Shown one piece after another: positions 3-43,230 of a DNA stretch of 64,000 nt. This stretch comes from a virus. The notes below the pieces were generated by a model. That model was not told the origin of the DNA. It did not search any database and was given only the letters and a program-made list of their open reading frames with translations. Where the stretch lies: the IMG/VR virus record IMGVR_UViG_3300032240_003128; one strand, 5' to 3'. The position numbers and the translations under genes are program-made. Each line of letters opens with the position of its first letter. Positions within the stretch are counted from its first letter, which is position 1.

Positions 3-1340
3 CTTGGAACTGATGATCGTGGAGCTACTCTTGAGTTCGCTTTGACAGAGTTTTCAAGAAAAAACAGTTCTAAGATAGTTTTTTTAAGCGGAACGCTGCC
101 TAATGCCAATCAAATAGCAGAATGGTTGTCCATATTAAATAAAAGAAAAACAATGGTTCTTAACTCAAAGTATAGAGCCGTTCCACTTGATGTTCATTAT
201 AGAAAATATGACACTTCTCTAAATCAAGGACCAAATCCTGTTGATATGTTTGACTCAATAGTCAAAATTTGTGAAAAGAATATTTCTGACAAAATACTTA
301 TATTCGTACATTCTAAAAACTTAGGCAAAAGATTAGTCAAGTATGTTGTAGAAAGAGGATTAGAAGCTAAATTTCATTCTGCTGATCTTGCTGCGGGTAA
401 AAGAAAATCATTAGAAAAAGAATTCAAAGATGGCTCTTTAAGATTACTTGTTGCAACAAGCACACTTGCTGCTGGTGTCAATTTACCAGCTAGAAGAGTA
501 ATCATTGCTGGAGTTGTCAGAGGAAACCAATTAGTAGAAAAGTCTGAAATATTTCAAATGATTGGTCGTAGTGGCAGGAAAGGAATCGATGATCAGGGTG
601 ATGCTTATATATTTTTCCCTGACAATAAGATTAGCTTGGCTAATGAGTACAAAAAAGTCGATAACATTTCTTCAAAATTGTTTTTGATAAACGATGATCT
701 TGAGTACCACAAACTTGCTGGTCATATTCTCGCTTTAATTCACTTAGAGAAAAAACTTAGTTTTGACAAAATATGGAGTGTGCTTTGCAACACACTAGGT
801 GCTTGTTCAGGCAAAATTAAATCTGATTATTTGAAAAATACACTAGATCGTTTAGTTAACATGAAATTTATTGAGCTTGTTGATGGTGACTACAAAATAA
901 AAAAACTTGGAATTCCAAGCGTATTGTTTTTTATTGATCCTTACGATTTAAACGTCTGGGTTAAAAACTTCTCTCGTTATTTTGCGGGATCTTCAAGAAA
1001 AGATTCTTTGGTAACTTATTATCTTTCTTTAATCCCATCTAATATGAAGTCGTTCATCACAGAAGAAGAAAAATTATTTTGCATGCAATACGCTGACAGA
1101 CTTAGAGAATTGCTTGGTCCTAATTTTATCGAGACAACAGCTATTAAGAATGGATATCTTTATTATTGCATGCTGAATAATAGATCAACAGGTATATTAT
1201 CACCTATGATTCCTGCTATTGTTAAGGATTTTGGCAGGATATGTGCTTGTTTGAATATGGTGTCAAAAATTTGCCAATGGAAATGCGAACATAATTTCTT
1301 CATTGGTTTGAAAGAAAGATTTCATCGTAAAAAAGTTTAA
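3..1340 (+). CDS. SF2 helicase, Ski2/Hel308-like (5' partial, begins upstream of window)
   Basis: Frame is open from base 3 (LGTDDRGATLE, the segment after the DExH box); motifs LSGTLPN, FHSADL, LVATSTLAAGVNLPARRVII, QMIGRSGR. Confidence 0.85.
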   Translation, partial: LGTDDRGATLEFALTEFSRKNSSKIVFLSGTLPNANQIAEWLSILNKRKTMVLNSKYRAVPLDVHYRKYDTSLNQGPNPVDMFDSIVKICEKNISDKILIFVHSKNLGKRLVKYVVERGLEAKFHSADLAAGKRKSLEKEFKDGSLRLLVATSTLAAGVNLPARRVIIAGVVRGNQLVEKSEIFQMIGRSGRKGIDDQGDAYIFFPDNKISLANEYKKVDNISSKLFLINDDLEYHKLAGHILALIHLEKKLSFDKIWSVLCNTLGACSGKIKSDYLKNTLDRLVNMKFIELVDGDYKIKKLGIPSVLFFIDPYDLNVWVKNFSRYFAGSSRKDSLVTYYLSLIPSNMKSFITEEEKLFCMQYADRLRELLGPNFIETTAIKNGYLYYCMLNNRSTGILSPMIPAIVKDFGRICACLNMVSKICQWKCEHNFFIGLKERFHRKKV

Positions 1341-1376
1341 TCATGCTCTCTTAGTTAAAGGCTTTGAGGGAATATC

Positions 1377-2000
1377 ATGTTGATGGAAAAGTTTTACACA
1401 GGACGGCAAACAAAGCCTAAATTGATTAAATTTACCCATAACGATTTAGAAAAGATTGCTTATAAGGTTTGCATAGAACCTGATGAATATAAAATATGTG
1501 TTGAAAGTGCAAGCAATATGTGGGCTAACAAAAAAAAGGGATCATATGGTAAAGGATTAGTTAATACTGAAGATGATCCTTATAAGACTGAAAGAACTGG
1601 AAAATTGGGAGAAATGGCTTTTTCTAAACTCTTTCAATTTCCTGTTGATTTGACTTATCGGGAAGGTGGAGATGATCAAGATTTCATTTGTAACGGAATG
1701 AAATTGAATATCAAAACCAGTACAAAAAAGCCTTGGTATATGGCTGGCTTGGTTACTGCTGGGCATTATCGAGGATCTAATTTCGTTCCTTTGGAGATCA
1801 AACACGATTATTATGTGTTTGGTTACATTGAAATGGAAGACAAAAAAGCCAATACTGCTTCAATAGTTTTTGTTGGCGGATGTGACAAAAAAACATTGAT
1901 TAACAGAGAAGTTAAAAGAGCAATCAAAGGTTCACATATGAATTATCAAATTCCTTATTCGGAATTGGTAGATATTGATAAAGTTAGTTTCAATCAGTAG
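1377..2000 (+). CDS. Hypothetical protein, possible PD-(D/E)XK nuclease fold
   Basis: GKLGEMAF...GGDDQDF...NIKTS pattern resembles restriction-endonuclease-like phage proteins. Confidence 0.5.
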   Translation: MLMEKFYTGRQTKPKLIKFTHNDLEKIAYKVCIEPDEYKICVESASNMWANKKKGSYGKGLVNTEDDPYKTERTGKLGEMAFSKLFQFPVDLTYREGGDDQDFICNGMKLNIKTSTKKPWYMAGLVTAGHYRGSNFVPLEIKHDYYVFGYIEMEDKKANTASIVFVGGCDKKTLINREVKRAIKGSHMNYQIPYSELVDIDKVSFNQ

Positions 2001-2229
2001 GTTTGCCAAAGAAGTTTTCTGGATATTCCATCTTAACGATTTTTTCTCCTTTGACTTCTTCTTCCCAAAATCGTACCTGTTCCACAGATACACCTAATTC
2101 AATATAATGACATTTATCATTTGGATTTACAGGCATATTAACACTTTTTCCGTTATGTAATATGTTTACTTTGCAAATATTTTCTTTTTTATCAAAGCAA
2201 AAACAGTTCTTGCATTTCTTCTTGCTCAT
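1990..2229 (-). CDS. Small Cys-rich hypothetical protein
   Basis: 79 aa, CKNC..C..C; fills the gap and is divergent from the kinase gene. Confidence 0.6.
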   Translation of the reverse strand: MSKKKCKNCFCFDKKENICKVNILHNGKSVNMPVNPNDKCHYIELGVSVEQVRFWEEEVKGEKIVKMEYPENFFGKPTD

Positions 2230-2237
2230 ACTATAAT
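2210..2237 (+). promoter_or_regulatory. Sigma70-like promoter, probably leaderless transcript
   Basis: TTGCAT-N16-TATAAT ending 6 nt before the ATG at 2244. Confidence 0.5.
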
Positions 2238-2243
2238 AGAGTC

Positions 2244-2876
2244 ATGAAAAACATCATTGTTGGATTATTTGGACAGGCAGCATCTGGCAAAGATACAGTC
2301 GCAGCAATGCTTGCTCCACGGTTGTGGGAATATATTGATTACGACAGACCTCTTGTTACAAAAATTGCTTTTGCATACAATGTGAAGAAAATATTTTGTG
2401 ATTACTTTGACGTTGGTTTTGATTTTATTGAAGAATGGAAAAGAAATCCTGAACCTCCTCCCGGTTTTTCAATGAATGTCAGACAGGCTTTACAAATGAT
2501 TGGTGATGGATTTAGAAAAGTTAAAAATTCTGTTTGGATCGACAAAGTTTTGAATAGAATGCAAAATGTAATCATCACAGATGGTCGTTATCTTAACGAA
2601 GCTAAAGCAATTAAGGAAAAAGATGGTATTGTGATTCTTATTGATCGTCCCAGTCATCGTAATGCTGATCAGAACGATAGTGAAAAGATTATGGGAGAAG
2701 TGTCAGATTATTTTGGAAATAAAGATGTGAATGGAATTGTTTCTGATAGTAATTATCCTATGTTTGATTATTACATAAAAAATGATAGCAGCATTTCAAA
2801 TCTAGAAGAGAAGATAATACAACAATTGATTCCTTTCATTGTTGAAAAGTTTGAATTAAAAGGATATGAATATTAA
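2244..2876 (+). CDS. Deoxynucleoside monophosphate kinase (phage type)
   Basis: P-loop GQAASGKDT, RQALQMIG, IITDGRYLNE, SE motifs typical of T4 gp1-like dNMP kinases. Confidence 0.85.
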   Translation: MKNIIVGLFGQAASGKDTVAAMLAPRLWEYIDYDRPLVTKIAFAYNVKKIFCDYFDVGFDFIEEWKRNPEPPPGFSMNVRQALQMIGDGFRKVKNSVWIDKVLNRMQNVIITDGRYLNEAKAIKEKDGIVILIDRPSHRNADQNDSEKIMGEVSDYFGNKDVNGIVSDSNYPMFDYYIKNDSSISNLEEKIIQQLIPFIVEKFELKGYEY

Positions 2877-2910
2877 TTCACAATCTATTATTGTTGAAAA
2901 ACAAATAAAT

Positions 2911-3882
2911 TTATCCGTAATTTGCTCGTGTATTTGGACTTCCTGTTTTTACAACTCGATCATAAGCATCCATTAATTCTTTATAAATTTCAGATTTTTT
3001 AGATTCGGTATTTACACGGTAATAAAAATCTAACAGACTATCAATATCAGTATTTTTGCTTCTCAAATCACTTATAAGTACCTCAGAAGCAGCCAATAAA
3101 AGTTTAATTTGGTGAGAGCTAGAATTTTTTTCTTTTGCAAACGCATTGCACCATTCATCATTATTAAGAATATAATGAAAAATTCTTTTTTCATCTTCTG
3201 GCAAAAAAGCAACAAGTTGCTTTGCATATTCTTTCAAACGATCTACAGTTAAATCAGCTATTTTAAACAATGATTCTTTGCTCATATAATTTTTTATTGC
3301 TGCAAGACGCACACCCATTTCTCTGGGATCGTTTAAATATTGAAACCAAGCACTCGAACCTTTTTTGGTATCATCTTGTTGTCCCGGAGGAAAAAAACGA
3401 ACTGCACCTTGGCTTCTATTAAAGGGGGTTTCGCCTTGTTGAGTTGTATGTCGTAATTCGTGAGCTAATGTTTCTGCTCCATCTTTTGTTAATTTTCCAT
3501 CTGATGTGGGAGTAGGAAGTTCAGCAAAAGCATTATTAGGCATAACCATAGTTTTTGAACTTCTGTTAAAATATGCTCTAGTACTTGCTCCCATAACTCT
3601 TGTCAATCCGCTTCTTGTCACAACAAGCATTCTTACTGGTTTGTCAAAAAATTCTTTAGATGTTGCAAATCCTATATCTCCCTGACTAGGTTGTTGTAAT
3701 TTATTAAAATCTGCATCCCATTTTTTAACGTCAAATTGCGCATTTCTTATCAGTTGTTTTGGTATTACATTTTTTTGAATTATTATTTCATCAGGTCTAT
3801 ATTCTAGATTATTTTGTTCATCTTGTTGTTCTGTAAAATATCGTGGATAATTTGTTTTTAACCATTCAGCAAAATTTTTCAT
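2911..3882 (-). CDS. Putative zincin metallopeptidase with internal-protein-like N-terminal tag
   Basis: Start MKNFAEWLK; TLAHELRHTTQ (HExxH) with a downstream YLNDPREM glutamate. Confidence 0.6.
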   Translation of the reverse strand: MKNFAEWLKTNYPRYFTEQQDEQNNLEYRPDEIIIQKNVIPKQLIRNAQFDVKKWDADFNKLQQPSQGDIGFATSKEFFDKPVRMLVVTRSGLTRVMGASTRAYFNRSSKTMVMPNNAFAELPTPTSDGKLTKDGAETLAHELRHTTQQGETPFNRSQGAVRFFPPGQQDDTKKGSSAWFQYLNDPREMGVRLAAIKNYMSKESLFKIADLTVDRLKEYAKQLVAFLPEDEKRIFHYILNNDEWCNAFAKEKNSSSHQIKLLLAASEVLISDLRSKNTDIDSLLDFYYRVNTESKKSEIYKELMDAYDRVVKTGSPNTRANYG

Positions 3883-3906
3883 TTTATCACCTATCATATT
3901 TATGAT

Positions 3907-4530
3907 TTATTTTAGGTTTTTCAAAGCATTTTCGGTCATTACAATGAATTCCCAGTTTCTTTTTTTGCAATAAACATTTGCTGCTTTCCATTTAGCAATG
4001 TTTTTGTTCCACTTTGTTTGTGATTTTGGTTTTATTTCCCACAATTCTATTTTTCCATCTGTGTATTCTACCAATATGTCGGGAATGTAATTGTGTGTTC
4101 CTCCATTGAAGGAATATTCTATTTGCAAGCTTTCTGCTTTGTATTTTCTTACTTTAGGGTTTTTCTCTAAATGTTTGATAAATTTTAATTCTAAACCGCT
4201 TCGAAAAAATATATTACAATGATTTTTTTCTGAATAAAAATTGCCTTGCTTGAATTTAGTGCCCTTTTTGCCAGTCCTTTTTACTTTTTTTTTTACATCA
4301 CGAATTATAAGTGCTCTTGTTTGAGTTCCCGGAGGAATCACTTCGCCAATATGCTTGGATCGATAATGAGCGATCAAATCTCTTGTAGGTATGCTGCAAG
4401 AGGGGCAAATGACGTAATCATCACCTTCTTTATGTTCTGTGACAATATGTGAACGAAAAACATCTAATTGATCATAACTTTGTTCGCAAATGAAACAACA
4501 ATAGTTTCTACCTGTATTTTTTTTGTCCAT
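3907..4530 (-). CDS. TnsA/T4 gp4-like PD-(D/E)XK endonuclease with two N-terminal C2H2 zinc fingers
   Basis: CFIC..H...H and CPSC..H...H; FRSGLE, YIPDILVEY, EIKP, K.KAA..YC....WEF.VMTE. Confidence 0.75.
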   Translation of the reverse strand: MDKKNTGRNYCCFICEQSYDQLDVFRSHIVTEHKEGDDYVICPSCSIPTRDLIAHYRSKHIGEVIPPGTQTRALIIRDVKKKVKRTGKKGTKFKQGNFYSEKNHCNIFFRSGLELKFIKHLEKNPKVRKYKAESLQIEYSFNGGTHNYIPDILVEYTDGKIELWEIKPKSQTKWNKNIAKWKAANVYCKKRNWEFIVMTENALKNLK

Positions 4531-12661: not shown

Positions 12662-12693
12662 TTCGTACCCCTTTGCTTAACTATATTTATTTC

Positions 12694-14064
12694 ATGGACA
12701 CTTTTTTTTCTTGTTTTTTCGAAAAACTTTATAAATCAAATTTAAAAATCAACATTATTGGAGATGTGTTGATTGATGAATATTATCAGGTAGATGTTGA
12801 TAGAATTAGTCCAGAATTTCCCATTCCTGTTCATCGTTCTTTTGATGACAAGCCAAATAAAATTTTTTGCGGTGGTGCAGCAAATGTCGCAGCACAATTT
12901 AAAAATTTTAATGTAGATGTTAACCTTATATCTCTTATGAATCCGCAGGCAGAAAAAATTTGCAATTTAAATGGTATTAATACAAATTATTCAATCATAG
13001 ACTCTAAATTTGTCAATTCAAAGAAAAAAAGATTTTATAAGGATTCTCATCCATTGATCAGATGGGATGTAGAAAAACCACAATTAGGAATTTCTAATAT
13101 TGATTATTATTTAAATGAAATAAAAATACCTGAAGCTGATATTAACATTTTTTCTGATTACGACAAAGGTTTGTTTTCAACAAATTGGCACAAGAAATAT
13201 TTAAAACAAAGCAAATCACTTATTGATCCCAAGAAAAACCTTAATATTTGGGAAGGATGTTATTTGTTTAAACCTAATGCCGTTGAAGCAAAAAGATTTG
13301 TCAATAAGGAAAAAGTTGAAGATCAGTTGAGATGGCTTCAAGCTTTGCTAGGATGTAATAATGTTGTTATTACAAATGCAGGGGAATGTGTAGATGCAAT
13401 CGATGATAATGAAAAAATATATCATGTAACACCTAGCAAGAAAGTAATAAAGCCCGAAAGTGTGATTGGTGCTGGAGATGCATACATGGCTTTCTTAGCC
13501 ATGTCTTTAGGTGTAGGTGTTGATCTATTAGAATCTTTAAATATTTCATTTGAAGCTGGCATTAATTATGTTGCTAATCGTTATAATAAACCTTTAAATC
13601 CATCAGATTTTTTCGTTGAAGACAAAGTGATTAACAATCCTGCTGTATTGAGAAATAGGGATTTTAGCCTAGTGTGGACTAATGGCTGCATGGATCTTAC
13701 ACATTACGGACACATATCATCTTTAAAACAAGCAAAATCTTTTGGTGACAAACTTTGTGTTGGTGTTAATTCAGATGAGAGTATAGCTAAATTGAAGGGT
13801 GAAAAAAGACCAATCATACCTTTGTCTCAAAGAATTGAAATGTTAAAAGCAATAAAATATGTAGATTTTATTTTTGTTTTAGAAGAAGATTTTCCTCAAA
13901 GTGTCATTGAATTAATTAAACCAAATGTTTTGGTTAAGGGTGAGGATTGGCGAGGTAAAAAAATTGCCGGTGCCGATGTTGTTGATAGAATTGAATTCAT
14001 TCCTTTAGTTGAAGGTCTATCAACAACTAGCATTATAAATAAAATTATTCATGCTTATGGATAA
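12694..14064 (+). CDS. hldE: Bifunctional heptose 7-phosphate kinase / heptose 1-phosphate adenylyltransferase (HldE/RfaE-like)
   Basis: PfkB domain GDVLIDEY, RISPEFPIPV, GGAANVA, SDYDKG, IDPK, GAGD; C-terminal TNGCMDLTHYGH, GVNSD.S...LKG..RPI, LVKGEDW, STTSII. Confidence 0.9.
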   Translation: MDTFFSCFFEKLYKSNLKINIIGDVLIDEYYQVDVDRISPEFPIPVHRSFDDKPNKIFCGGAANVAAQFKNFNVDVNLISLMNPQAEKICNLNGINTNYSIIDSKFVNSKKKRFYKDSHPLIRWDVEKPQLGISNIDYYLNEIKIPEADINIFSDYDKGLFSTNWHKKYLKQSKSLIDPKKNLNIWEGCYLFKPNAVEAKRFVNKEKVEDQLRWLQALLGCNNVVITNAGECVDAIDDNEKIYHVTPSKKVIKPESVIGAGDAYMAFLAMSLGVGVDLLESLNISFEAGINYVANRYNKPLNPSDFFVEDKVINNPAVLRNRDFSLVWTNGCMDLTHYGHISSLKQAKSFGDKLCVGVNSDESIAKLKGEKRPIIPLSQRIEMLKAIKYVDFIFVLEEDFPQSVIELIKPNVLVKGEDWRGKKIAGADVVDRIEFIPLVEGLSTTSIINKIIHAYG

Positions 14065-14173
14065 GTTTTGATTTAACAAATGGACAGTAATGAAATTGTC
14101 CAATGATTGTTGAAGTAACACCAACCAAAAAACCCAAAATAAAAGCGACTGTCAACGTAATGAATGTTTTCAT
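14045..14173 (-). CDS. Small membrane protein (not in ORF track)
   Basis: AGGAGG Shine-Dalgarno; MKTFITLTVAFILGFLVGVTSTIIGQFHYCPFVKSKLIHKHE. Confidence 0.55.
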   Translation of the reverse strand: MKTFITLTVAFILGFLVGVTSTIIGQFHYCPFVKSKLIHKHE

Positions 14174-14186
14174 TTTTGAGCCCTCC

Positions 14187-14196
14187 TAAATAAATA
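14187..14196 (+). promoter_or_regulatory. T4-late-like TAAATA promoter element
   Basis: TAAATAAATA 5 nt before the ATG at 14202; the same element precedes genes at 12661(-), 25561(-), 44808, 46207 and 51756(-). Confidence 0.5.
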
Positions 14197-14201
14197 GAGA
14201 T

Positions 14202-14567
14202 ATGTTATCATTTAAACAATTTTTAAATAATTTAGAAGAACAAGCTGCCACTACTCCAGCTACTGGTGTTACTCCTGCTGCAAGTACAACTCCAGCTACA
14301 TCTAATCCAACTGCTGCAACTGCTGCCACTACTAATGCATCTGCTAAAACACAGCAAGTACCTCCAGCGACCAGAAGCAAGCTTGATGCTGCTGCTCAGA
14401 AGAACGCAGCTGCTATGCGGCTTTATCAGACAGGTAAAACAAAAGAAGCGGTTGACACATTGAGAAAAGATCCTAATTTTCAATTAGCAATGCAAGATTT
14501 AACCAAAACAAGTTCTCCAGCTAATGCTTCTCAGTTGGTAAATTTTGCTTTGGGTGGCAATTCATGA
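14202..14567 (+). CDS. Ala/Thr-rich protein (tagged family)
   Basis: MLSFKQFLNNLEEQ followed by a low-complexity ATTPA segment. Confidence 0.7.
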   Translation: MLSFKQFLNNLEEQAATTPATGVTPAASTTPATSNPTAATAATTNASAKTQQVPPATRSKLDAAAQKNAAAMRLYQTGKTKEAVDTLRKDPNFQLAMQDLTKTSSPANASQLVNFALGGNS

Positions 14568-14710
14568 CATTTAAAGATTTTTTAAAAATTGATGAGGCAA
14601 ATGGTCATGGCGGTAAACGTCATAACTCATTTACTGTTTTAAGGATGAATTATCGTAATCAACAACCAGTTTCTATTAAAAAACAAACAAAAAAACTATT
14701 TAAGATTTAA
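14564..14710 (+). CDS. 48-aa protein (tagged family; not in ORF track)
   Basis: ATGA overlap with the upstream gene; MTFKDFLKIDEANGHGGKRH...; stop overlaps the next start. Confidence 0.6.
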   Translation: MTFKDFLKIDEANGHGGKRHNSFTVLRMNYRNQQPVSIKKQTKKLFKI

Positions 14711-15297
14711 TGCTACTTTTTCCAAAACAAAATTATCAAAAATTCAATTTGGGTATTATTGTTCCTCCTCGCAAGCCATATGATATTCTTTCATTTGCTT
14801 GTTGGTTTTCTTTTTTTAAATTTTTACCAAAAGTAAAACCAATTATTATTGTGGCAGGAAACACTCCTATTGATTTTGCTATATGGGCAAGAAAACTTAA
14901 TTTTCCTGTATTTTATGCTCATGAATGCTTCCATCCTAATCAACTTGTTGGTCTTGACTTATGGGATGAATCTTACGCAATTGTTATTTCAAATATTTTT
15001 TGTATGAAAAAATTTGATTTTAATAAAAATTTTGATAGCGATTTTATGATAATGCGATCAAAATCTCCTGATAACAAAGAGTTTTTAATAGATGATATAA
15101 TGGATAATAATTTTTGTCATGCTGCTTTCTGGAATATTGGAAATAATTTTGAAGAAGTTAGAGATAAGCTAATAAATAATATCGGTATATTCTCTAGTGA
15201 TAAAAGTTTAAATCAAATTAAATTTGAATCTATATGGGAAGATGCTAAACACATAAGAACTCTTTTAAATCAGGAGGTTCGCCATGAAGAGGTTTGA
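14710..15297 (+). CDS. Hypothetical protein
   Basis: 195-aa ORF coupled to its neighbours. Confidence 0.6.
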   Translation: MLLFPKQNYQKFNLGIIVPPRKPYDILSFACWFSFFKFLPKVKPIIIVAGNTPIDFAIWARKLNFPVFYAHECFHPNQLVGLDLWDESYAIVISNIFCMKKFDFNKNFDSDFMIMRSKSPDNKEFLIDDIMDNNFCHAAFWNIGNNFEEVRDKLINNIGIFSSDKSLNQIKFESIWEDAKHIRTLLNQEVRHEEV

Positions 15298-15559
15298 TTT
15301 TGCTTATGGCGATGATGGGTTCGATGATGACGATGAAGAAAATCAAGAGGATCAGGAGAATAACTTCATCGATTCGCAAATGCTAGCCATGCAGATGGAG
15401 CAGAACATTCTTATAGAACAAGAAATTCAAGCTAAACTTTTAGAAGAAGCTTATAAAATCTGCAAAGGTTCGTGGATGTGGTCATTTATGACGATACCAC
15501 AAAGAATGAAAAAAGTTAAAATTGTTTACGATGAAATAAAAAAAATTATTGCTGAATGA
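15284..15559 (+). CDS. Acidic hypothetical protein
   Basis: AGGAGG Shine-Dalgarno; D/E-rich N-terminus. Confidence 0.65.
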   Translation: MKRFDFAYGDDGFDDDDEENQEDQENNFIDSQMLAMQMEQNILIEQEIQAKLLEEAYKICKGSWMWSFMTIPQRMKKVKIVYDEIKKIIAE

Positions 15560-15604
15560 TTTTTGTAGACATACTAATTTAAGTTTGGTCTAAGGGTAAC
15601 AGTC

Positions 15605-15931
15605 TTGCCTACTTATAATTTCGAATGCAAAAATTGCAATAAAATCTATGAAACACTAGCATCTTTTGACGCAACAGGCAAATATGCTGGTGTTTCGTGT
15701 CCTGATTGCAATTCCAAGAAAAAGAAAAAATTGCTTAATGATGCTAATGTTAAATTTGCTCAACCAAAAGATACGAGCAAATTTGATAATTTCAACTATC
15801 GGGCAGGATACAACTTAGAACAAGCGCAGAACTTACGCAGAGATGCACAAACTGCATCACACATGGGAACTGATCCATACATGCCTATAGATGACATAAA
15901 CAACGGAAGGCACTTTGGAGAAGTGAAATAA
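15605..15931 (+). CDS. FmdB-family zinc-ribbon protein
   Basis: TTG start; MPTYNFECKNC...CPDC pattern. Confidence 0.8.
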   Translation: MPTYNFECKNCNKIYETLASFDATGKYAGVSCPDCNSKKKKKLLNDANVKFAQPKDTSKFDNFNYRAGYNLEQAQNLRRDAQTASHMGTDPYMPIDDINNGRHFGEVK

Positions 15932-15959
15932 TTGACATTGGTTAATGAAACACTATATT
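15932..15959 (+). promoter_or_regulatory. Sigma70-like promoter of the prkA operon
   Basis: TTGACA-N16-TATATT upstream of GAGG and the ATG at 16003. Confidence 0.55.
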
Positions 15960-16002
15960 CATTTTATCATGTCGTAAACGGCACACAGAGAGGCAAATTA
16001 AT

Positions 16003-18075
16003 ATGGTTACTTTGAGCCAGTTTGTAGACAAGAATAAGCTAGAGCAATTCAACAGATTAAATGAAGTTGTTAGTTTTGAGCAATATCTCAATCGTTGTTA
16101 CACCAATCCAAAACTTGTCAGAAATTCACATCAACGAATTTATGACATGATTGTGTCGCAGGGCACATCTGAAATTGAAAAGTACCGCAAAAAGGTAATT
16201 GTTTATAATTTCTTTGAAAAACACGAACAAATCAAGGTCTTTGGAATTGAAGAACAACTTGAATCACTAGTTGCACACTATAAAGGTGCTGCTGGTGGCT
16301 ACGGACCAGAAAAGCGAATCCTTCTTCTTTGCGGTCCTGTAGGATCTGCAAAGTCTACAATTGTTCGTCTTATTAAGCGAAGCATGGAAGATTATTCTCA
16401 AAATGATGCTGGTGCTTGGTTTACATATCGTTGGATCAATTTGCCAACAGGTAGCGATGGTATCTACACTTCTGACACTTGTGAATGTCCAATGAATGAA
16501 GAGCCGCTCAAGCTTCTTCCATTCGATGTTCGCAAAAAGATTCTTTATGAACTTAACGGCATACACAAAGAACAAGCTGATGTGTCGCAACACACAACTC
16601 TTTACACTCTTGACGTTAAGGGTGAAATTAATCCTAAATGCAAGTTCTTTTATGACAAGTTGCTTGAAAAGTATAATGGTGATTGGACTCAAGTTCTTTC
16701 CAATCACGTTGAAGTTATTCGCAAGAATTACAATGAAGCCAAGCGTGTAGGTATTGCTTCATTCCAGCCAAAGGATGAAAAAAATCAAGATAGCACTGAG
16801 TTGACAGGAGACATCAACTTTGCTTTATTGCCAACATTTGGTAGTGATTCTGACCCTCGCTGCTTCAATTTTGATGGAGAATTTGAAGTTGCCAACAGAG
16901 GTATCATTGAATTTATTGAAATGTTAAAGCTTGAAGTTGCATTCCTTTATGACCTTTTGGGTGCATCTCAGGAACAATCTATCAAGCCAAAGAAGTATTC
17001 TCAGATTTCGATTGATGAATCAATTATTGGGCATACCAATATGCCAGAATATGAGAAGCTCAAGAACAATCAGTTCATGGAAGCTCTTAAGGATAGAACT
17101 GTCAGAATTGAGATTCCTTATTTGCTTGAATGGAGCAAGGAACTCAAGGTTCTTGAACAGGATTATAATTCAGATAAAATCAAGCAGCATATTGCTCCAC
17201 ACACTCTTGAAATTGCAGCTTTGTTTGCTGTTCTTACCAGATTGGAAGATGACAAAGATAATAAGATCACGATTACGGAAAAGGCTGATCTTTATGATGG
17301 TAAGATGTTACCCGGATGGACTGTTGATCGTGTGAAAGAACTTCGTGAAAAGAATCCCAATGAAGGGATGATGGGTCTTTCTGCTCGTTATGTTCAAGAC
17401 AAAGTTTCTTCTACCTTGTCAAGCCGACACGATTATATCAATCCATTTATGGTTCTTAATGCGCTTAAGAGTGGTCTTGATAATCATTCTTTGATTACCA
17501 ATAAAGATCTTGTTCGCAAGTATCAAAACTGCATCACTTTGTCTACCAAGAAGTTAGATGACATTCTGAAAAACGAAGTGCAAAAGGCTTTGGTTGGTGA
17601 TGAAGAGGCAATTGTAAGGTTGTGTGCTAACTATATCGATAACCTTATGGCTTATATTAACAAGGCAAAGATTCTTAATAAGATTACTGGCAGAGAAGAA
17701 ACAGCTGATGAGAAATTGATGCGTTCTATTGAATCCAAGATTGATGTTCCAGAATCGACTTGTGATGACTTCCGTAGAATGATTGCAGCTTTTATTGGTG
17801 ATCTTGCTGTTAAGGGTAAGATTTTCCGTTGGGACAGTAATCCTCTTCTTAAGAAAGCTTTAGAATCTAAGTTGTTTGAAGATACGAAGGATCATATTAA
17901 GTTGAGTGCATTCTCCAGTGGAGCAAGCACTGTTGATCCTGATGTGCAGAAGAAAATCGATGCTGTAAAACAGCGTTTGGTTGATAAATATGGATACAAT
18001 GAACAGTCTGCAACAGATGTTCTAGACTATGTTTCAAGTATCTTTGCTAGGGGCGATCTAGCAGATAACGACTAA
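16003..18075 (+). CDS. prkA: PrkA/YeaG-family AAA+ ATPase (annotated serine kinase)
   Basis: KRILLLCGPVGSAKST, CPMNEEPL, FQPKDEKNQDSTELTG, SDPR.F.FDG, ANRGIIEFIEMLK, HIAPHTLE, EGM.GLSARY. Confidence 0.95.
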   Translation: MVTLSQFVDKNKLEQFNRLNEVVSFEQYLNRCYTNPKLVRNSHQRIYDMIVSQGTSEIEKYRKKVIVYNFFEKHEQIKVFGIEEQLESLVAHYKGAAGGYGPEKRILLLCGPVGSAKSTIVRLIKRSMEDYSQNDAGAWFTYRWINLPTGSDGIYTSDTCECPMNEEPLKLLPFDVRKKILYELNGIHKEQADVSQHTTLYTLDVKGEINPKCKFFYDKLLEKYNGDWTQVLSNHVEVIRKNYNEAKRVGIASFQPKDEKNQDSTELTGDINFALLPTFGSDSDPRCFNFDGEFEVANRGIIEFIEMLKLEVAFLYDLLGASQEQSIKPKKYSQISIDESIIGHTNMPEYEKLKNNQFMEALKDRTVRIEIPYLLEWSKELKVLEQDYNSDKIKQHIAPHTLEIAALFAVLTRLEDDKDNKITITEKADLYDGKMLPGWTVDRVKELREKNPNEGMMGLSARYVQDKVSSTLSSRHDYINPFMVLNALKSGLDNHSLITNKDLVRKYQNCITLSTKKLDDILKNEVQKALVGDEEAIVRLCANYIDNLMAYINKAKILNKITGREETADEKLMRSIESKIDVPESTCDDFRRMIAAFIGDLAVKGKIFRWDSNPLLKKALESKLFEDTKDHIKLSAFSSGASTVDPDVQKKIDAVKQRLVDKYGYNEQSATDVLDYVSSIFARGDLADND

Positions 18076-18090
18076 TATGAGGATTGAAAA

Positions 18091-19284
18091 ATGCCCCGCC
18101 GTATAGACTCTGATCATAAAGACTTCAGAGACGTAGTCAGTGGCAGGATTAGAAAGAACTTAAAAAAGTTTATTAAAAGTGGTGAAATATTTCGCCACCG
18201 TGGTAAAAATGGCAAAGTATCAATAAAGATTCCTGCTATTGATATACCTCATTTTCTCCATGGTAGGAATCCCAATGGAGCAGGGCGTGGAGAAGGTGAA
18301 CAAGGCGATACAATTGGCAAGGATAAAGGTCAAGGCAAAGGTCAGGGCAATGGTGCTGGTCAGGATGAAAGCGAAGGCATCATTGTCCAACTAGACATGG
18401 AAGACATTCTTCATTTTATGAAGGATGAATTGATGCTTCCTGATCTTAAGCCTAAGCAACAAGCCAATCTCGAAGATGTAAAAATCAAATACAATAATAT
18501 TTCTTTAGTTGGTCCAGAATCTCTTAGACATACTCGTCGCACAATGTTGACCGCAATGAAGCGTCTCTGTGGGACAGGTGAAATTAATAATTTGTATGAA
18601 ATTCCCGGAATTAAAGACAAAGTTAAAATGATCAATCCGATTAATTCGGACAAGAGATATCGTCAATACAAAGAAATTAGTTTTCCATCTAGCAATGCTG
18701 TTGTTATTTTTGCCAGAGATGCAAGTGGATCAATGGATGATCGAAAAGTAAATGTTGTTTCCGACATGGCTTATTGGATTGATGTTTACATTAGAAACTT
18801 TTATGAAAGAGTCGAAAGGCTTTATGTGTGGCATGATGTTCAAGCACACGAAGTAGATGCCAAAGATTTTTACAGAATTAGAAATGGTGGAGGAACTACT
18901 TGCTCCACAGCGTTAGAATTGGTTGCCAAACAATTTGAAAATAGATTTCCACCAAACAATTGGAATATTTATTTCTTTTATTTTACCGATGGTGAAAACT
19001 ACGACAATGACAATGAAGTTTTTACAGCATTGTTGAAGAAAGAATTTCCACAAAGCGTTGTCAACCTTGTCGCTATAACTCAAATCGGTGCTTATTCTTA
19101 CAAGAATAGTGTTGCAGAAGCTGTTGAAAAAGCAATAGTCGAAGGTGATTTGGAAGATAACGTAGTTGTTGCAGAAATTCCATTTGATGTTATCAATAGT
19201 GAAGAGAAGAGAGACGAAGCTATTTTGAAAGCTATTAAGGATATTCTGGGTACTCCTTTCCAAAGTGCTAATCAGGTGTTTTAA
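18091..19284 (+). CDS. yeaH: YeaH/YhbH (DUF444) vWA-domain protein
   Basis: Gly-rich GxGxGxxGD segment, LMLPDLKPK, MIDAS-like DASGSM, GGT.CS, TDGENY. Confidence 0.9.
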   Translation: MPRRIDSDHKDFRDVVSGRIRKNLKKFIKSGEIFRHRGKNGKVSIKIPAIDIPHFLHGRNPNGAGRGEGEQGDTIGKDKGQGKGQGNGAGQDESEGIIVQLDMEDILHFMKDELMLPDLKPKQQANLEDVKIKYNNISLVGPESLRHTRRTMLTAMKRLCGTGEINNLYEIPGIKDKVKMINPINSDKRYRQYKEISFPSSNAVVIFARDASGSMDDRKVNVVSDMAYWIDVYIRNFYERVERLYVWHDVQAHEVDAKDFYRIRNGGGTTCSTALELVAKQFENRFPPNNWNIYFFYFTDGENYDNDNEVFTALLKKEFPQSVVNLVAITQIGAYSYKNSVAEAVEKAIVEGDLEDNVVVAEIPFDVINSEEKRDEAILKAIKDILGTPFQSANQVF

Positions 19285-19286
19285 TT

Positions 19287-20882
19287 ATGTCAGATAAATT
19301 TCTATTTGGTTCGCCTGTTCTCTTTGGATCAGCAACCACTCCGGGTGTGCCTATTCCAGAAGAATTGCAAAAACACATTCCTACTATTTTTCAAGCGTGT
19401 AAAGATTTTGGTTTAGATTTTTATCCTACAATTGTTCAAATGCTTTCTCATGACGAGATGTCTGAAGTTGCATCTTACGGTGGTTTTGCAGTAAGATTTC
19501 CTCACTGGAAATTTGGCGCAGAATACGAAGAAATGCAAAGAGGATATCTGTACGGCAATCATAGAATATATGAAATGGTGATTAATTCTTCACCATGCTA
19601 CTTATATTGCTTAAATTCAAATACTTTGCTTGACAATATCACAGTTATTGCTCATGCTCTTGGGCATTGTCACTTTTTCAAAAATAACATTCATTTTTCT
19701 AGAACTAATACAAATGCTCACAATGAGCTTGCCAACAATGGATCAAATGTAAGAAAGTATATGTCTCGATATGGAAGAGAAACTGTTACTGAATTCATGG
19801 ATCATTTGTTCAGAATAGAGACTCTTGTTGATCCAATGAATATCTGGAAAGAAAGAAAAGCAAAAGACGTTGTCATCACTGATAATAAAGATTATGTGTT
19901 TCCACGAAGAATTAAAACAAAAAATGATTACATGGAAGATTGGATTAATACTAAATCTTTTATAAAAGCTCAAAACAAAAAGATTGAAGAACGTGAGATT
20001 ATGCAAGATCTCAATCTTCTTATTACTCCAGAGTCTGACATATTTGGTTATATTAAGGAAAATGCACCGTTCAAACCTTGGCAACGAGATATTGCAGAGA
20101 TTCTTTACAACGAAGCAATTTATTTTAGCCCACAAGGCAAGACAAAAGCATTGAATGAAGGTCTTGCAAGTTATTGTGATTATCACATCATTGCAAAGCA
20201 AGGTTATTGCAGCCTTGGTCAAGATACAGAAGATGCTGGAATCGTAGAATATTCAATCCACAAGGCTGGAGTTCTTGGCGGCAAGTATAGTATGAATCCA
20301 TACAAACTTGGATTTACCCTTCTTATGGATATTGAGGAAAGATGGGACAAGGGTAGATTTGGCACAGATTATGAAAATTGTACAGATCCTATTGAAAAAG
20401 AAAACTGGGATCTAAAGATTGGACTGGGTAAGCAAAAAGTTTTTGAAGTATGCAAAAACTATGATGATTATCAATTCATCAATGAGTTCTTCACTAAAGA
20501 TTTCTGTGAAAAGAATGAATTCTTTGAGTACAAGCGTTATCCAACAGGTGAAGTTAAGATCGAAAGCAGAGATTACAAAAAGATTAAAAAGGAATTGTTG
20601 CGCAAGTACATTAACCGTGGTTTGCCTAATATCAAACTTATTGAACCAAGGTTTAAAGGAAATATGTTTTTGATGGAACATAAGTGGGAAGGCATAGAAC
20701 TTTATAAGGCTTATGCATATGAAGTCATGAAGTCCATATGTTTTCTTATGAGACAACCAGTTGTATTACAAACAAAAAACCATAATGGCGATGAAGTTTT
20801 TTATTATTGCCAAGATATGAATGGTGATTATAGTGCTGCTGATCCCAAAACAATTACACGGGAGCAACTAAACAAGTTATGA
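19287..20882 (+). CDS. spoVR: SpoVR/YcgB-family protein
   Basis: RFPHWKFG, IYEMVINS.PC..Y, HALGHCHFFKNN, PWQRDI, YF.PQ..TK.LNEG.ASY, NPYKLG. Confidence 0.95.
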   Translation: MSDKFLFGSPVLFGSATTPGVPIPEELQKHIPTIFQACKDFGLDFYPTIVQMLSHDEMSEVASYGGFAVRFPHWKFGAEYEEMQRGYLYGNHRIYEMVINSSPCYLYCLNSNTLLDNITVIAHALGHCHFFKNNIHFSRTNTNAHNELANNGSNVRKYMSRYGRETVTEFMDHLFRIETLVDPMNIWKERKAKDVVITDNKDYVFPRRIKTKNDYMEDWINTKSFIKAQNKKIEEREIMQDLNLLITPESDIFGYIKENAPFKPWQRDIAEILYNEAIYFSPQGKTKALNEGLASYCDYHIIAKQGYCSLGQDTEDAGIVEYSIHKAGVLGGKYSMNPYKLGFTLLMDIEERWDKGRFGTDYENCTDPIEKENWDLKIGLGKQKVFEVCKNYDDYQFINEFFTKDFCEKNEFFEYKRYPTGEVKIESRDYKKIKKELLRKYINRGLPNIKLIEPRFKGNMFLMEHKWEGIELYKAYAYEVMKSICFLMRQPVVLQTKNHNGDEVFYYCQDMNGDYSAADPKTITREQLNKL

Positions 20883-21625
20883 GTCATCCTACTTTTAGGT
20901 TTCTTTTTCAAAATGCTCCCGGCTTGCCTTTTACCAAATGGTGCAAACAATTTGATGAAAGCTTAAAAGATAGAAATGCAAAAACATTTGTATTTGCTGA
21001 CAAATCAATAGCTAATTCTTGTTTCGTTAAAAGCGTACTTAGTCATAAAATATTTCTTAATATTTTCTGTTCAGAAAACATATTTGAAGAATTGCCACTA
21101 ATACAAGAAAACATAAAAAAACATTGTGAATCAATGCTACTGAAAGGTATGTTTTCTGAATGCAAACTTGATTTTAATTCTTTAAAATATGAAAATTTGG
21201 TTTTGAGAGATTATAATCAAATTAACATAAGCGATATGTTCGGTGAAGAATGGCAATTTTACTATTTAAACAAAGCTAAACTTTTTTACAAGTTAAGTGA
21301 ATATTATGCAAATTTACCTTTTAGTTATATATGGTCTTTTTTCTTTTCAGAAAGCAATACTGAGGCACTTGTAGCAGACGAATATGTTAAAAAAAATGTA
21401 CATATTTTTAGTCGTCATATGAAACTAGTAGATAAGCCAGAGGATAATAAGAAATATAAAATAATATATTTGGACACGATGAACAAGAAAGTAAATATTA
21501 ATGTTTTCATGGAAAAACTTGAACAAAATGGTTTGTTGTTGTTAAAAAATCTTGATGCTGATGGACCTAATATGGTAGGATGGCGTGATCTCCGAAATAG
21601 AATGCTTGGAATAATAAGGATTTAA
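20879..21625 (+). CDS. Hypothetical protein
   Basis: ATGA-coupled to spoVR; no recognised motif. Confidence 0.6.
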   Translation: MSHPTFRFLFQNAPGLPFTKWCKQFDESLKDRNAKTFVFADKSIANSCFVKSVLSHKIFLNIFCSENIFEELPLIQENIKKHCESMLLKGMFSECKLDFNSLKYENLVLRDYNQINISDMFGEEWQFYYLNKAKLFYKLSEYYANLPFSYIWSFFFSESNTEALVADEYVKKNVHIFSRHMKLVDKPEDNKKYKIIYLDTMNKKVNINVFMEKLEQNGLLLLKNLDADGPNMVGWRDLRNRMLGIIRI

Positions 21626-21626
21626 T

Positions 21627-21743
21627 ATGATTAGGCAGGCTTTTGAGTATATTTTATTTTTAATAATGACTGCAATTGTCATTACAATAATTGCGTATTT
21701 CACTCAACAGCAAAACAGAGATGGTGATGATTATTATGAATGA
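21627..21743 (+). CDS. Small membrane protein (not in ORF track)
   Basis: AAGGA Shine-Dalgarno; 38 aa with one hydrophobic helix. Confidence 0.45.
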   Translation: MIRQAFEYILFLIMTAIVITIIAYFTQQQNRDGDDYYE

Positions 21744-21960
21744 CACTCAACACATTTCTATTTTGATTAAACAAAGTCCCATCGAAATGTTTAATCAAAT
21801 AAATCAACTTAAAAAAATGAATGAAGAACTTCAATGTATTGATTCTTTGCAGCAAATGACAATTGAGCGGCTGAATAAAGAAATTAATCTTCTTCGTGAG
21901 TCTTTGTATTTATTGGAACAACAACACAAATTAATGCTTGTCCAAAACACCTCCATGTGA
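21736..21960 (+). CDS. Coiled-coil hypothetical protein
   Basis: Heptad-like L/I/Q pattern. Confidence 0.5.
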   Translation: MNDTQHISILIKQSPIEMFNQINQLKKMNEELQCIDSLQQMTIERLNKEINLLRESLYLLEQQHKLMLVQNTSM

Positions 21961-21980
21961 TAAAATATGGAGGTGTTTTG
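21938..21980 (+). promoter_or_regulatory. Sigma70-like promoter within a perfect 14-bp inverted repeat
   Basis: TTGTCC-N17-TAAAAT; arms CAAAACACCTCCAT (21943-21956) and ATGGAGGTGTTTTG (21967-21980). Confidence 0.6.
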
Positions 21981-22004
21981 TAACTAGAAAACAGAGCTAT
22001 TCTT

Positions 22005-23339
22005 ATGAAGACAGTTGGTTTTGAACATCTTCATTGTCACAGCGAATACTCTGTCCTTGATGGGCTAGCATCAATTGATGAGTTAATTTCACGTTGGTCA
22101 CCACATGGCGATTATCTTTGCGTGACAGACCATGGATTGATGGGTGCTATCCCCAGTCTAATCACAAAGACAGAACAAGCTGAAAAGAAATTACAGCCTA
22201 TTTTTGGCTGCGAGCTTTATGTGAACTCTATTCACAATGAGCCAACAGAAACAGAAGATGCTAGAGATAAATTTATAAAAAATTTATCTCCACAAGAATT
22301 TGAAAATTTCAAAGTATCCAGTCACATCTTGGCAATTGCGGTTACGAATAAAGGTTATGAAAACCTAACCAAGCTTTGCAGCCTTGGCTGGAGTCAAGGG
22401 TTTTATCGCAAGCCTAGAGTAAATCACAAAACTCTTCAACAATACAAAGAAGGAATTGTGTTTACTTCTTGTTGCTGCGCTTCTGAAGCTGCCAGAGCTT
22501 TGCGTGTGCATGGAAAAGAAATAGCAGAATCTACTGTCCTGAAATATAAAGATATGTTTGGTGATAATTTTTACCTTGAAATGATGCTTTTAGATTTTGA
22601 GTATCAAAGAGAATATGATCAGTTTTTAGTTGAAATGCATATTAAACATCAGATTCCAATGATTATTACTAATGATGTGCATTATGCATATCAAGAAGAC
22701 AGCAAATATCAAACTTTGATGATGTTGGTAAACACTAAAAGAACATTAGCTGAAATTGAAAAGTTGAAAGCTGAAAATGCTGATGTGTTTGAATTGCAAG
22801 ATAGAAATTTATGGATGAAAACAGAAGAAGAATTGAATCAGAAATGGGCTGAGAAATATTCTGATGTGATTCCTTTGGAGATTTACGAACAAGCCAAGAT
22901 GAATACTGTTAAGATATGTAAGATGGCATCTGGTGTTAAGTTAGACAGAAGTGTTAAATTACCTAGATTGAATGATGATGAAGGCTCTTTAAAGGATTTG
23001 GTATTGAAAGGTATGTTTTACAGAGGAATATCCAAATCAAATCGTATTTACACAAAACGTGTTGCAGAAGAATTGGATCTTATTTTTAGGAAACAATTTG
23101 CTAGTTACTTTTTAATAGTCAAGAGTTTTACCGATGAAGCTAGAAGAAAATGCCAAGAGATTACAGGCTTGGATGGTGTCTATGCGGTTGGACCCGGTCG
23201 AGGTTCTGGTGCTGGTTCTCTCGTCTTATATTTACTTGGTGTTACTGACGTAGATCCTATCAAGCACGATCTTCTGTTCTCACGATTCCTGTCAGAGAAC
23301 AGAGGTAGTCAAGCTGTGCTGAAGTTTAGTCAATCTTGA
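22005..23339 (+). CDS. dnaE: DNA polymerase III alpha subunit, N-terminal part (PHP domain to start of palm)
   Basis: HLHCHSEYSVLDG, TDHG, PIFGCELY, TNDVHY, GPGRGSGAGSLVLYLLGVTDVDPIKHDLLFSRFL; stops before PDxDxD. Confidence 0.9.
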   Translation: MKTVGFEHLHCHSEYSVLDGLASIDELISRWSPHGDYLCVTDHGLMGAIPSLITKTEQAEKKLQPIFGCELYVNSIHNEPTETEDARDKFIKNLSPQEFENFKVSSHILAIAVTNKGYENLTKLCSLGWSQGFYRKPRVNHKTLQQYKEGIVFTSCCCASEAARALRVHGKEIAESTVLKYKDMFGDNFYLEMMLLDFEYQREYDQFLVEMHIKHQIPMIITNDVHYAYQEDSKYQTLMMLVNTKRTLAEIEKLKAENADVFELQDRNLWMKTEEELNQKWAEKYSDVIPLEIYEQAKMNTVKICKMASGVKLDRSVKLPRLNDDEGSLKDLVLKGMFYRGISKSNRIYTKRVAEELDLIFRKQFASYFLIVKSFTDEARRKCQEITGLDGVYAVGPGRGSGAGSLVLYLLGVTDVDPIKHDLLFSRFLSENRGSQAVLKFSQS

Positions 23340-42264: not shown

Positions 42265-43230
42265 ATGTGTGTGCAATACAAAGCTTTTAATTCGACACGC
42301 AACTTTGGCGTTGAACTTGAAGTTGGTAATGAATACCCAAGAAGCTTTATATCAAGTGTTATAAAAAACACTACAAGAATGAAAGTGAATATATCAAATT
42401 ACACACAATCTGTTAATAATGCTTATTGGGTAGTCAAGACTGATGCATCTTGTGGCAAAAAAATTAAAACCAACGGAATTAATGAAGGAGGTTATGAAAT
42501 AGCCTCTTTTGTTGCTTCTGGAATTGATGATGTAAACAAAATATCTAATGTTGCCCGCAGCTTGAAGAAAAGTGGTGTACGAGCAAATAACAATTGTGGT
42601 TATCACATTCATATCAATACTTCAGATTTCTCCGAAGAAGATATGGGCAGGCTTATAAGTTATTGGATTTTGATTGAAGATATTTTTTTCAATATGGTTC
42701 CTTTCCGCAGAACCGTTAATCGTTATTGCAAAAAAGTTAAAATTAAAAACAACACTTATCAAAAAGCTTTACAAGTTATAAAAGACAGCAGCAAAATATG
42801 GGAAATGTATAGACCTAAAACATTTAACATAAGACATCCAAATGAAAAAAGATATTCTCTCAATCTTTTGAATTTTTATGCTGCTTCTAAAACAAAATTT
42901 AAAAGAAAAACAATTGAATTTCGATTCCCAGAAGGAACGCTTTGCCACGAAACAGTGAAAAATTTTATATTTTTGTTTTTAAGTTTTGTCGAAAACATGA
43001 AAATTGCAAAACATCCAAAATCTAAGAATATGAATGTTGATTATTTTTTAAATATTTGTGGACTAGGTAGTGAAAAAGCATTTTGTATTCTAGACCATAA
43101 TTTGATCAAGACAAAGATATGGATTTTGAAAAGACTGATTAGATTTAGCAAGGTTCAGGAATATAAGAACCAAGCAAAGAAGATCATTTCTAGGATTTAC
43201 AGAGGGTATGGCAATGCAAAAAGTTTCTAA
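42265..43230 (+). CDS. Putative amidoligase (COOH-NH2 ligase, Amidoligase_2)
   Basis: FGVELE, W.VKTDAS, EIAS, CGYHIHI, RYSLNL, TIEFR. Confidence 0.85.
   Translation: MCVQYKAFNSTRNFGVELEVGNEYPRSFISSVIKNTTRMKVNISNYTQSVNNAYWVVKTDASCGKKIKTNGINEGGYEIASFVASGIDDVNKISNVARSLKKSGVRANNNCGYHIHINTSDFSEEDMGRLISYWILIEDIFFNMVPFRRTVNRYCKKVKIKNNTYQKALQVIKDSSKIWEMYRPKTFNIRHPNEKRYSLNLLNFYAASKTKFKRKTIEFRFPEGTLCHETVKNFIFLFLSFVENMKIAKHPKSKNMNVDYFLNICGLGSEKAFCILDHNLIKTKIWILKRLIRFSKVQEYKNQAKKIISRIYRGYGNAKSF

Follow-up and report, generated by a model that had tools for sequence, protein, structure and literature searches.

PrkA, YeaH (YhbH) and SpoVR make up one of the most widespread bacterial modules of unknown mechanism. 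The Escherichia coli PrkA homologue, YeaG, was reported in October 2026 to drive global proteolysis during starvation: now renamed SpdA, it is required for a largely non-specific degradation of cytoplasmic protein that supplies amino acids and ATP (PMC13684143). Bacillus subtilis PrkA hydrolyzes casein slowly, in a reaction that depends on ATP and on the Walker A motif, and does so without kinase activity (PMC9512850). Phages with all three genes have been on record since 2006, functionally uncharacterized. The subject here is a further example, carried by a 64,000-nucleotide stretch of viral DNA (IMG/VR record IMGVR_UViG_3300032240_003128), the whole of which is referred to as the window. Among its closest known systems is the cellular prkA-yhbH-spoVR module with the PrkA subtype of ~690 amino acids (aa) that is found in Myxococcota, Chloroflexota, Planctomycetota, Bdellovibrionota and Calditrichota. 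The reading favored below is that of a working trio, vertically inherited in a clade of huge phages, that turns over or remodels host cytoplasmic proteins; as a whole, this statement is assigned a probability of about 0.55.

The three genes lie contiguously on one strand of the window, with intergenic gaps of 15 nucleotides (nt) between prkA and yeaH and 2 nt between yeaH and spoVR:

16003-18075, plus strand: prkA/yeaG (spdA)-type gene for an AAA+ ATPase of 690 aa (Pfam PF08298 and PF06798)
18091-19284, plus strand: yeaH/yhbH-type gene for a DUF444 protein of 397 aa (Pfam DUF444)
19287-20882, plus strand: spoVR/ycgB-type gene for a protein of 531 aa (Pfam SpoVR)

All are full-length, and the open reading frames (ORFs), Pfam matches, translations and alignments confirm a preliminary description of the window that had credited them with intact Walker A, MIDAS (metal ion-dependent adhesion site)-like and HxxGH...NEG motifs. 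PrkA matches the AAA_PrkA domain (PF08298; 3.1e-78, residues 24-418) and the PrkA C-terminal domain (PF06798; 1.1e-72, residues 426-676). Over residues 12-683 it matches PDB entry 9xip, 'Serine protein kinase', at an E-value of 6e-201, as well as 9xiq and 9xir; a literature search found no paper describing the 9xip structure. The Walker A sequence GPVGSAKST occupies residues 111-119. In an alignment of 82 phage and 58 cellular PrkA sequences, conservation is 95% or higher for GPVGS.KST, FQPKDEKNQD and FLYDLLGA, as it is for ~25% of all positions, in phage and cellular copies alike. YeaH matches DUF444 (PF04285) at 1.7e-63 and carries DASGS at 210-214 with GGT and TDG further on; its MIDAS residues D210, S212, S214, T269 and D300 are invariant in 78 sequences. 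SpoVR matches PF04293 at 1.5e-100, its residues 25-443 corresponding to profile positions 5-404 of 407, and has HALGH at 123-127 and NEG at 290-292; E96, H123, H127, N290, E291 and G292 are invariant in 80 sequences. Across alignments of 78-140 phage and cellular homologues, the quoted motifs of the trio are invariant or nearly so. The additional SpoVR_C domain (PF24755) is not matched by the window protein at E<=0.001 and is matched at ~1e-06 in two clade relatives (L026, L028; the viral loci are numbered L004-L083).

The phage residence of this operon, which the preliminary description had also asserted, is borne out by its recurrence. A scan of IMG/VR yielded 142 viral contigs with a close PrkA relative, 80 of which were fetched for locus comparison: PrkA is present in 80 of 80, YeaH in 79 and SpoVR in 76, all absences being at contig ends. 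The order prkA-yeaH-spoVR is kept at every testable phage locus and at 55 of 79 cellular loci (one genome per species). A survey that took DnaE-N as its anchor in place of PrkA found the trio in 13 of 13 clade loci with enough upstream sequence. The nearest GenBank relative, the 595-kb uncultured phage LR756511, has genes for a zinc-ribbon protein (described below), PrkA, YeaH, SpoVR and DnaE in the same order, the products being 52%, 62%, 51%, 53% and 48% identical, respectively, to those of the window. Within the clade, identity to the window ranges over 57-96% for PrkA, 45-93% for YeaH and 49-97% for SpoVR. One relative (G003), 572 kb long, is rated 100% complete by CheckV and ends in direct terminal repeats; terminase-like matches are found in G003, in LR756511 and in a third relative, with Terminase_6N above cut-off in LR756511 and G002. 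The 111-kb contig closest to the window is 23% complete by CheckV and genome sizes in the clade run from ~0.26 to 0.67 Mb; most likely, the window represents part of a tailed huge-phage genome of several hundred kb. As the preliminary description had it, the trio is flanked by phage genes: the window encodes a tail-fiber homologue (PHROG match at 1.8e-28), a split DnaE, a helicase, ThyX, PhoH and an HNH endonuclease, together with an amidoligase and glycosyltransferases. There are no tRNA genes in the window.

The trio is also under purifying selection. For all three genes, the ratio of nonsynonymous to synonymous substitution rates (dN/dS) between the window and L004 and L005 is 0.02-0.06; synonymous sites are near saturation, which makes these ratios approximate while leaving their direction clear. 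Cellular PrkAs are 51-54% identical to that of the window, and cellular YeaH and SpoVR 30-41%, compared with 45-97% in the phage clade; higher YeaH and SpoVR identities at one cellular locus (L100) come from short alignment segments only and were discarded. The phylogeny rests on PrkA trees, for which the cellular sample was the 80 sequences nearest the query. In these trees the phage sequences form a single clade (FastTree, 149 rows, Shimodaira-Hasegawa-like support 97; IQ-TREE, LG+G4, 52 rows, SH-approximate likelihood ratio test support 98) that is sister to a multi-phylum cellular group. The nearest cellular sequences belong to Myxococcota, Chloroflexota, Planctomycetota and Bdellovibrionota. 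The stem of the phage clade measures 0.29-0.53 and its internal depth ~0.67 changes per site, comparable to the spread among bacterial phyla, and no recent cellular donor is identifiable in the PrkA tree. The trio is inherited vertically as a core syntenic part of the huge-phage clade, whose copies have a single origin. In the tree as a whole, PrkA falls into two deep subfamilies separated by a branch of ~5 changes per site, with phage members in each: a ~690-aa type (this phage clade with Myxococcota, Chloroflexota, Planctomycetota and others) and a YeaG type (E. coli with the phages RsoM2USA, LR745206 and LR756504). Inside the operon, L009 is a mosaic relative to the window, its SpoVR being 97% identical (dS 0.70) and its PrkA 84% (dS 2.3), which suggests recombination between lineages.

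These data bear directly on the idea that the operon is an artifact or dead cargo: host DNA joined to phage DNA in a chimeric assembly, or a gene set captured recently and now decaying. The window itself has neither a capsid nor a terminase gene, and one relative of the module, on the 546,147-bp contig CALFYV010000090.1 (L084), is binned in a metagenome-assembled genome labeled 'uncultured Bacteriovoracaceae'. That contig has the phage-type zinc ribbon-PrkA-YeaH-SpoVR block together with an HldE-like gene, its PrkA is 64% identical to that of the window, and it is nested in the phage clade of the tree; because of this phage-type module and this placement it is probably a misbinned huge-phage genome. 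Against the idea, the G+C content rises only modestly across the module, to 0.36-0.375 from ~0.32 in its flanks. A common gene order in 80 independently assembled viral contigs and LR756511, relatives with terminal repeats and terminase matches, low dN/dS, the monophyly of the phage copies, and the lack of any cellular sequence near enough to be the donor (identity does not exceed 54%, whereas it is 57-96% in the clade) make an artifact extremely improbable, and chimera and decay are set aside on the grounds of synteny, the terminal-repeat relative, dN/dS and the tree. The module is very probably a functional, conserved component of these phages, to judge from its sequence record.

Inteins are consistent with the same conclusion. 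In relatives of the window, SpoVR is enlarged to 930-1375 aa by one or two LAGLIDADG inteins, for example:

L026, 13295-16078: intein-bearing SpoVR gene
L028, 13295-17398: intein-bearing SpoVR gene
L031, 12137-15058: intein-bearing SpoVR gene

In the numbering of the window protein, the insertion sites follow residue 100 (EMVIN / C...HN / T) and residue 294 (NEGLA / C...HN / S), the latter three residues past the invariant E291, and a PrkA relative that is 88% identical to the window's (P0009) has an intein after residue 286; the window's own PrkA and SpoVR are without inteins. Important genes are the usual home of inteins, which tend to occupy conserved functional sites there; their presence in relatives fits the notion that PrkA and SpoVR are expressed and needed.

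Predicted structures assign plausible parts to the two partners of PrkA. The AlphaFold2 model of YeaH (mean predicted local distance difference test score, pLDDT, 75) consists of an N-terminal helix, a disordered Gly-rich linker and a C-terminal von Willebrand factor A (vWA) domain; its 287 PDB matches at E<=0.001 all belong to vWA or integrin I domains, NorD of NorQD among them, and support YeaH as a vWA adaptor with a MIDAS site. The SpoVR model (pLDDT 84) has a helical domain at residues ~20-410 and a C-terminal alpha/beta domain that is confident at 414-523. When it is compared with representative structures by VIA-align, ~45 of the top 50 rows are zincin peptidases (families M1, M4, M9, M30, M32 and M61, minigluzincins and DUF885 among the neighbors), with Z scores of 7-11, which are moderate and, being below 13, may lack specificity when the model is helical. 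On a helix spanning residues 114-133, H123 is followed four residues later by H127; N290-E291-G292 is on a second helix at 287-304, and the invariant E96 as well as N100 on two short strands ahead of the His helix; in the model, this order of elements is that of the gluzincins. SpoVR is thus regarded as probably zincin-like with a metal site, and is not called a peptidase. The preliminary description's combination of an AAA+ ATPase, a vWA adaptor and a possible metallopeptidase consequently stands for its first two members, with the match to 9xip and the vWA fold, and gains zincin fold neighbors for the third, in which the Glu of HExxH is missing and any peptidase activity is putative.

How might the three proteins work together? 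With ATP as its energy source, a PrkA hexamer would bind to proteins and unfold them; YeaH, docked by way of its MIDAS site, would be the adaptor or activator, in the manner of the vWA partners of MoxR-type AAA+ ATPases; and a metal-dependent hydrolytic step would be provided or gated by SpoVR. In turning over or remodeling host cytoplasmic proteins, the phage would release amino acids and energy and alter the proteome, in support of an infection cycle that is long and costly for a phage of half a megabase, with the upstream zinc-ribbon protein as a putative phage-specific regulator or adaptor. By analogy with the starvation proteolysis of E. coli, the odds of this role being turnover or remodeling of host cytoplasmic proteins are judged slightly better than even. 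A bolder version, which is decidedly speculative, would see in SpoVR the hydrolytic subunit that the starvation-proteolysis machine of PrkA/YeaG(SpdA) has so far lacked: a zincin of non-canonical type that uses H123, H127 and E291 together with some other general base, the invariant E96 for example. Huge phages would carry the whole machine along with a phage-only zinc-ribbon regulator for bulk recycling of the host proteome at will. Were it true, the intein insertion points (after N100 and A294 of SpoVR and after R286 of PrkA) would mark the catalytic center.

Several observations weigh against this account of the trio. The E. coli precedent covers YeaG/SpdA, not YeaH or SpoVR. For Bacillus anthracis PrkA on its own, protease and kinase activities are both negligible (PMC13001217), and the biochemistry of PrkA by itself is accordingly disputed, hydrolysis being very slow in B. 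subtilis and negligible in B. anthracis. The catalytic Glu of HExxH does not exist in SpoVR, residue 124 being Ala in 44 and Val in 36 of 80 sequences and never Glu. A profile search of the PDB with SpoVR gave no match at E<=10 and an hhalign comparison with E. coli PepN only a chance match of 13 columns, so a link between SpoVR and peptidases at the level of sequence was rejected; Foldseek likewise returned no significant match for the SpoVR model, and a literature search found no paper tying SpoVR to zincins. The moderate fold scores of SpoVR and the near-saturation of synonymous sites, both already mentioned, belong on the same side. On the other hand, the near inactivity of B. anthracis PrkA when alone leaves room for partners to supply the missing functions.

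Two other roles had been raised in the preliminary description. In one of them the module signals the host into or out of a stationary or dormant state and so controls dormancy, persistence or sporulation. Cellular prkA and spoVR mutants do have sporulation defects, YeaG alters survival after starvation and the lag before regrowth, and another starvation-linked gene, PhoH, is found in the window. Since the E. coli survival effect follows from proteolysis, this role partly merges with protein turnover. As a separate explanation it is less likely than turnover, and unlikely on its own terms, because the trio occurs mostly in non-sporulating bacteria (the phyla of its closest cellular relatives, Myxococcota, Chloroflexota, Planctomycetota and Bdellovibrionota, are non-sporulating) and because a heptose-pathway neighbor of the module may point to a Gram-negative host. 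Somewhat less likely again is the processing or assembly of the phage's own proteins by a chaperone or protease devoted to very large virions or to scaffold clearing. MoxR-vWA pairs have an established role in the assembly of large complexes, as vWA partners of AAA+ proteins often do, NorQD is among the fold matches of YeaH, and huge virions need many assembly factors. Yet the module lies among genes of replication and nucleotide metabolism (DnaE, ThyX, helicase, HldE) and not among structural genes, it recurs in unrelated phages with different virion types (the Thermus phages, RsoM2USA and others), and it is conserved in cells that make no virions at all.

The selective destruction of host defense or regulatory proteins early in infection is an improbable third role. 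Proteolytic and remodeling functions are common among the takeover devices of phages, and a phage-specific zinc-ribbon partner could direct such a machine to its targets. Counter-defense genes usually evolve fast, however, and at about one-quarter of its positions PrkA has the same residue in phage copies as in cellular ones from multiple phyla; nor is any PADLOC component similar to the trio. (PADLOC gives no defense match for PrkA, YeaH, SpoVR or the ORF that follows them, and only a weak PtuB-like one, 1.3e-4, for the zinc ribbon; a reading of the trio itself as a defense system was rejected for the same lack of matches.) The turnover or remodeling of host cytoplasmic proteins, which the E. 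coli precedent suggests and with which the predicted folds are compatible, is preferred to all of these.

Immediately upstream of the trio are the zinc-ribbon gene and a promoter-like site:

15605-15931, plus strand: FmdB-type zinc-ribbon gene, 108 aa, TTG start (Pfam Zn_ribbon_8, 1.9e-09)
15932-15959, plus strand: sigma-70-like promoter match TTGACA-16-TATATT, 11 of 12 consensus positions

The zinc-ribbon gene is present in 78 of 80 viral loci and in 74 of them precedes prkA on the same strand; ahead of prkA it is found in none of the 79 cellular loci, where a profile built from the phage proteins has two weak matches, neither upstream of prkA. Its nearest atlas clusters are 90-100% viral, and its dN/dS (window against L004 and L005; approximate) is 0.02-0.08. 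Its linkage to prkA is nonetheless loose. The intervening spacer is 71 nt in the window, where it also contains a GAGAGG ribosome-binding site, 1 nt in L005-L012 and 70-130 nt in most other members of the clade; in many relatives this interval contains a terminator as well as a TATAAT box, and in four loci the zinc-ribbon gene lies 6-9 kb away on the opposite strand. These terminators, separate -10 boxes and displaced loci weaken the case for the zinc ribbon as an obligatory member of the operon and suggest that it is often transcribed separately from prkA. The earlier proposal of an accessory role accordingly survives in reduced form: the gene is a conserved neighbor of prkA specific to this phage clade, and a candidate partner. 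The TTGACA promoter behind which the trio had been placed is a real match, the best-scoring promoter-like site in 14000-22100 and kept in L004, but sites of this kind are no denser in the region than in shuffled sequence (29 vs 30.5). Elsewhere in the clade a CTTATAAT box recurs ~35-45 nt before the start of prkA (L025, L037-L039, L044, L047, L048, L051, L062, L067 and L072), often preceded by a GC-rich hairpin and a T run right after the zinc-ribbon gene; it may represent a clade-wide type of promoter for the trio.

Other genes in the neighborhood of the module are the following:

12673-14064: HldE-like bifunctional gene with PfkB kinase and cytidylyltransferase-like domains
20879-21625, plus strand: lineage-specific ORF (orf248), 248 aa, whose ATGA overlaps the spoVR stop by 4 nt
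22005-23339 and 25627-28098: the two parts of DnaE, split by a 635-aa ORF on the opposite strand (23355-25262) with no family match

The overlap of orf248 with spoVR is real, but the suggestion that this coupled ORF is an accessory of the trio had to be given up. Its homologues are confined to the window's closest relatives (L004-L009, 52-82% identical, and L012, 30%), with none in LR756511 or in other clade members; it has no match in Pfam, PHROG or PADLOC, and its atlas scores are at noise level. The slot after spoVR varies in content across the clade. With a dN/dS of 0.10-0.22, above the values of the trio, orf248 is by its sequence a real gene, a faster-evolving neighbor and no core part of the module. 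The HldE-like gene is upstream of the module in most members of the clade (36-84% identity) and forms one conserved block with the trio and DnaE; a heptose-pathway gene in this position may hint at a Gram-negative host. In LR756511 (L003:932-4363) the DnaE parts abut on the minus strand (4363..3080 and 3076..932). An Amidoligase_2 gene is located at 42265-43230 of the window, 21 kb from the trio, and in RsoM2USA (L002:1903-3474) an Amidoligase_2 gene, ORF26, lies two genes past SpoVR; because amidoligases are common in jumbo phages, this parallel is probably a coincidence.

The clade-wide retention of the trio under purifying selection, together with its independent acquisition by other phages, argues that the three proteins are a machine complete in itself, able to operate in a cytoplasm not its own. 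It also suggests that host protein may be recycled by large phages in the way that host DNA is by others. The role of the trio can be tested in the cultured phages that have it (Thermus phiYS40 and TMA, Ralstonia RsoM2USA), and the zincin-like fold and the intein sites single out residues for mutagenesis.

Comparison with the phage trios already on record sets the window in its place. The preliminary description knew of no characterized phage version, and it is true that none has been studied functionally, but phage copies are on record in phiYS40, TMA, RsoM2USA and huge phages. In the Thermus phage phiYS40 the order is unlike that of the window: DUF444 (YS40_056), SpoVR (057), an extra gene of 616 aa, and PrkA (059); TMA and related Thermus phages match the trio too. 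The Ralstonia jumbo phage RsoM2USA encodes PrkA (ORF30), DUF444 (ORF29) and SpoVR (ORF28), and two 635-kb uncultured huge phages, LR745206 and LR756504, have the trio in the window's order. The proteins of all these trios (phiYS40/TMA, RsoM2USA, LR745206, LR756504), which are complete sets in tailed phages, are 23-31% identical to those of the window, and the zinc-ribbon neighbor is absent from them. In the PrkA tree a very long branch separates the RsoM2USA, LR745206 and LR756504 PrkAs, which fall on the side of E. coli YeaG, from those of the window's clade, and this position indicates that these trios were acquired separately from that of the window's clade. In the RsoM2USA paper PrkA and SpoVR figure only as annotations, placed in separate functional categories (PMC8504454), and the main text of the 2020 huge-phage paper (Al-Shayeb) mentions neither PrkA, SpoVR nor sporulation. 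Much closer are LR756511 and the IMG/VR loci L004-L083, members of the same clade with the same zinc ribbon-PrkA-YeaH-SpoVR block, HldE upstream and DnaE downstream; relative to LR756511, the window's sub-lineage adds the 248-aa ORF after spoVR, and in the window the DnaE parts are separated.

Among better-understood machines, the MoxR-type AAA+ ATPases with vWA partners (RavA-ViaA, NorQ-NorD, CbbQ-CbbO) resemble the trio in combining an AAA+ ring with a vWA protein that bears a MIDAS site and is the product of an adjacent gene. They differ in that PrkA belongs to another AAA+ family with a C-terminal domain of its own, and in the third, zincin-like partner; the likeness is offered as a mechanistic analogy, and membership is not claimed. 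With the gluzincins (M1, M4, M32 and minigluzincins) SpoVR shares, in its predicted structure, an H-x3-H on one helix and a Glu, in N-E-G-(W/F)-A-(S/T), on a later one; this sequence recalls the NEGFA motif of family M1. SpoVR departs from them in having Ala or Val after the first His and ~165 residues between the His helix and the Glu helix, and is not classed among them. The cellular prkA-yhbH-spoVR module has much in common with that of the phages: families, gene order, domain architecture, Walker A, MIDAS and H-x3-H...NEG are the same, while the phage version is distinguished by its residence in a phage, by the zinc-ribbon gene upstream, by inteins in some of its copies and by diverged YeaH and SpoVR proteins. 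The window is thus no new kind of system; it provides one more example and the description of a clade, to which are added here the clade-wide conservation of the trio, its phage-specific zinc-ribbon neighbor, the inteins of its relatives and the zincin-like fold predicted for SpoVR.

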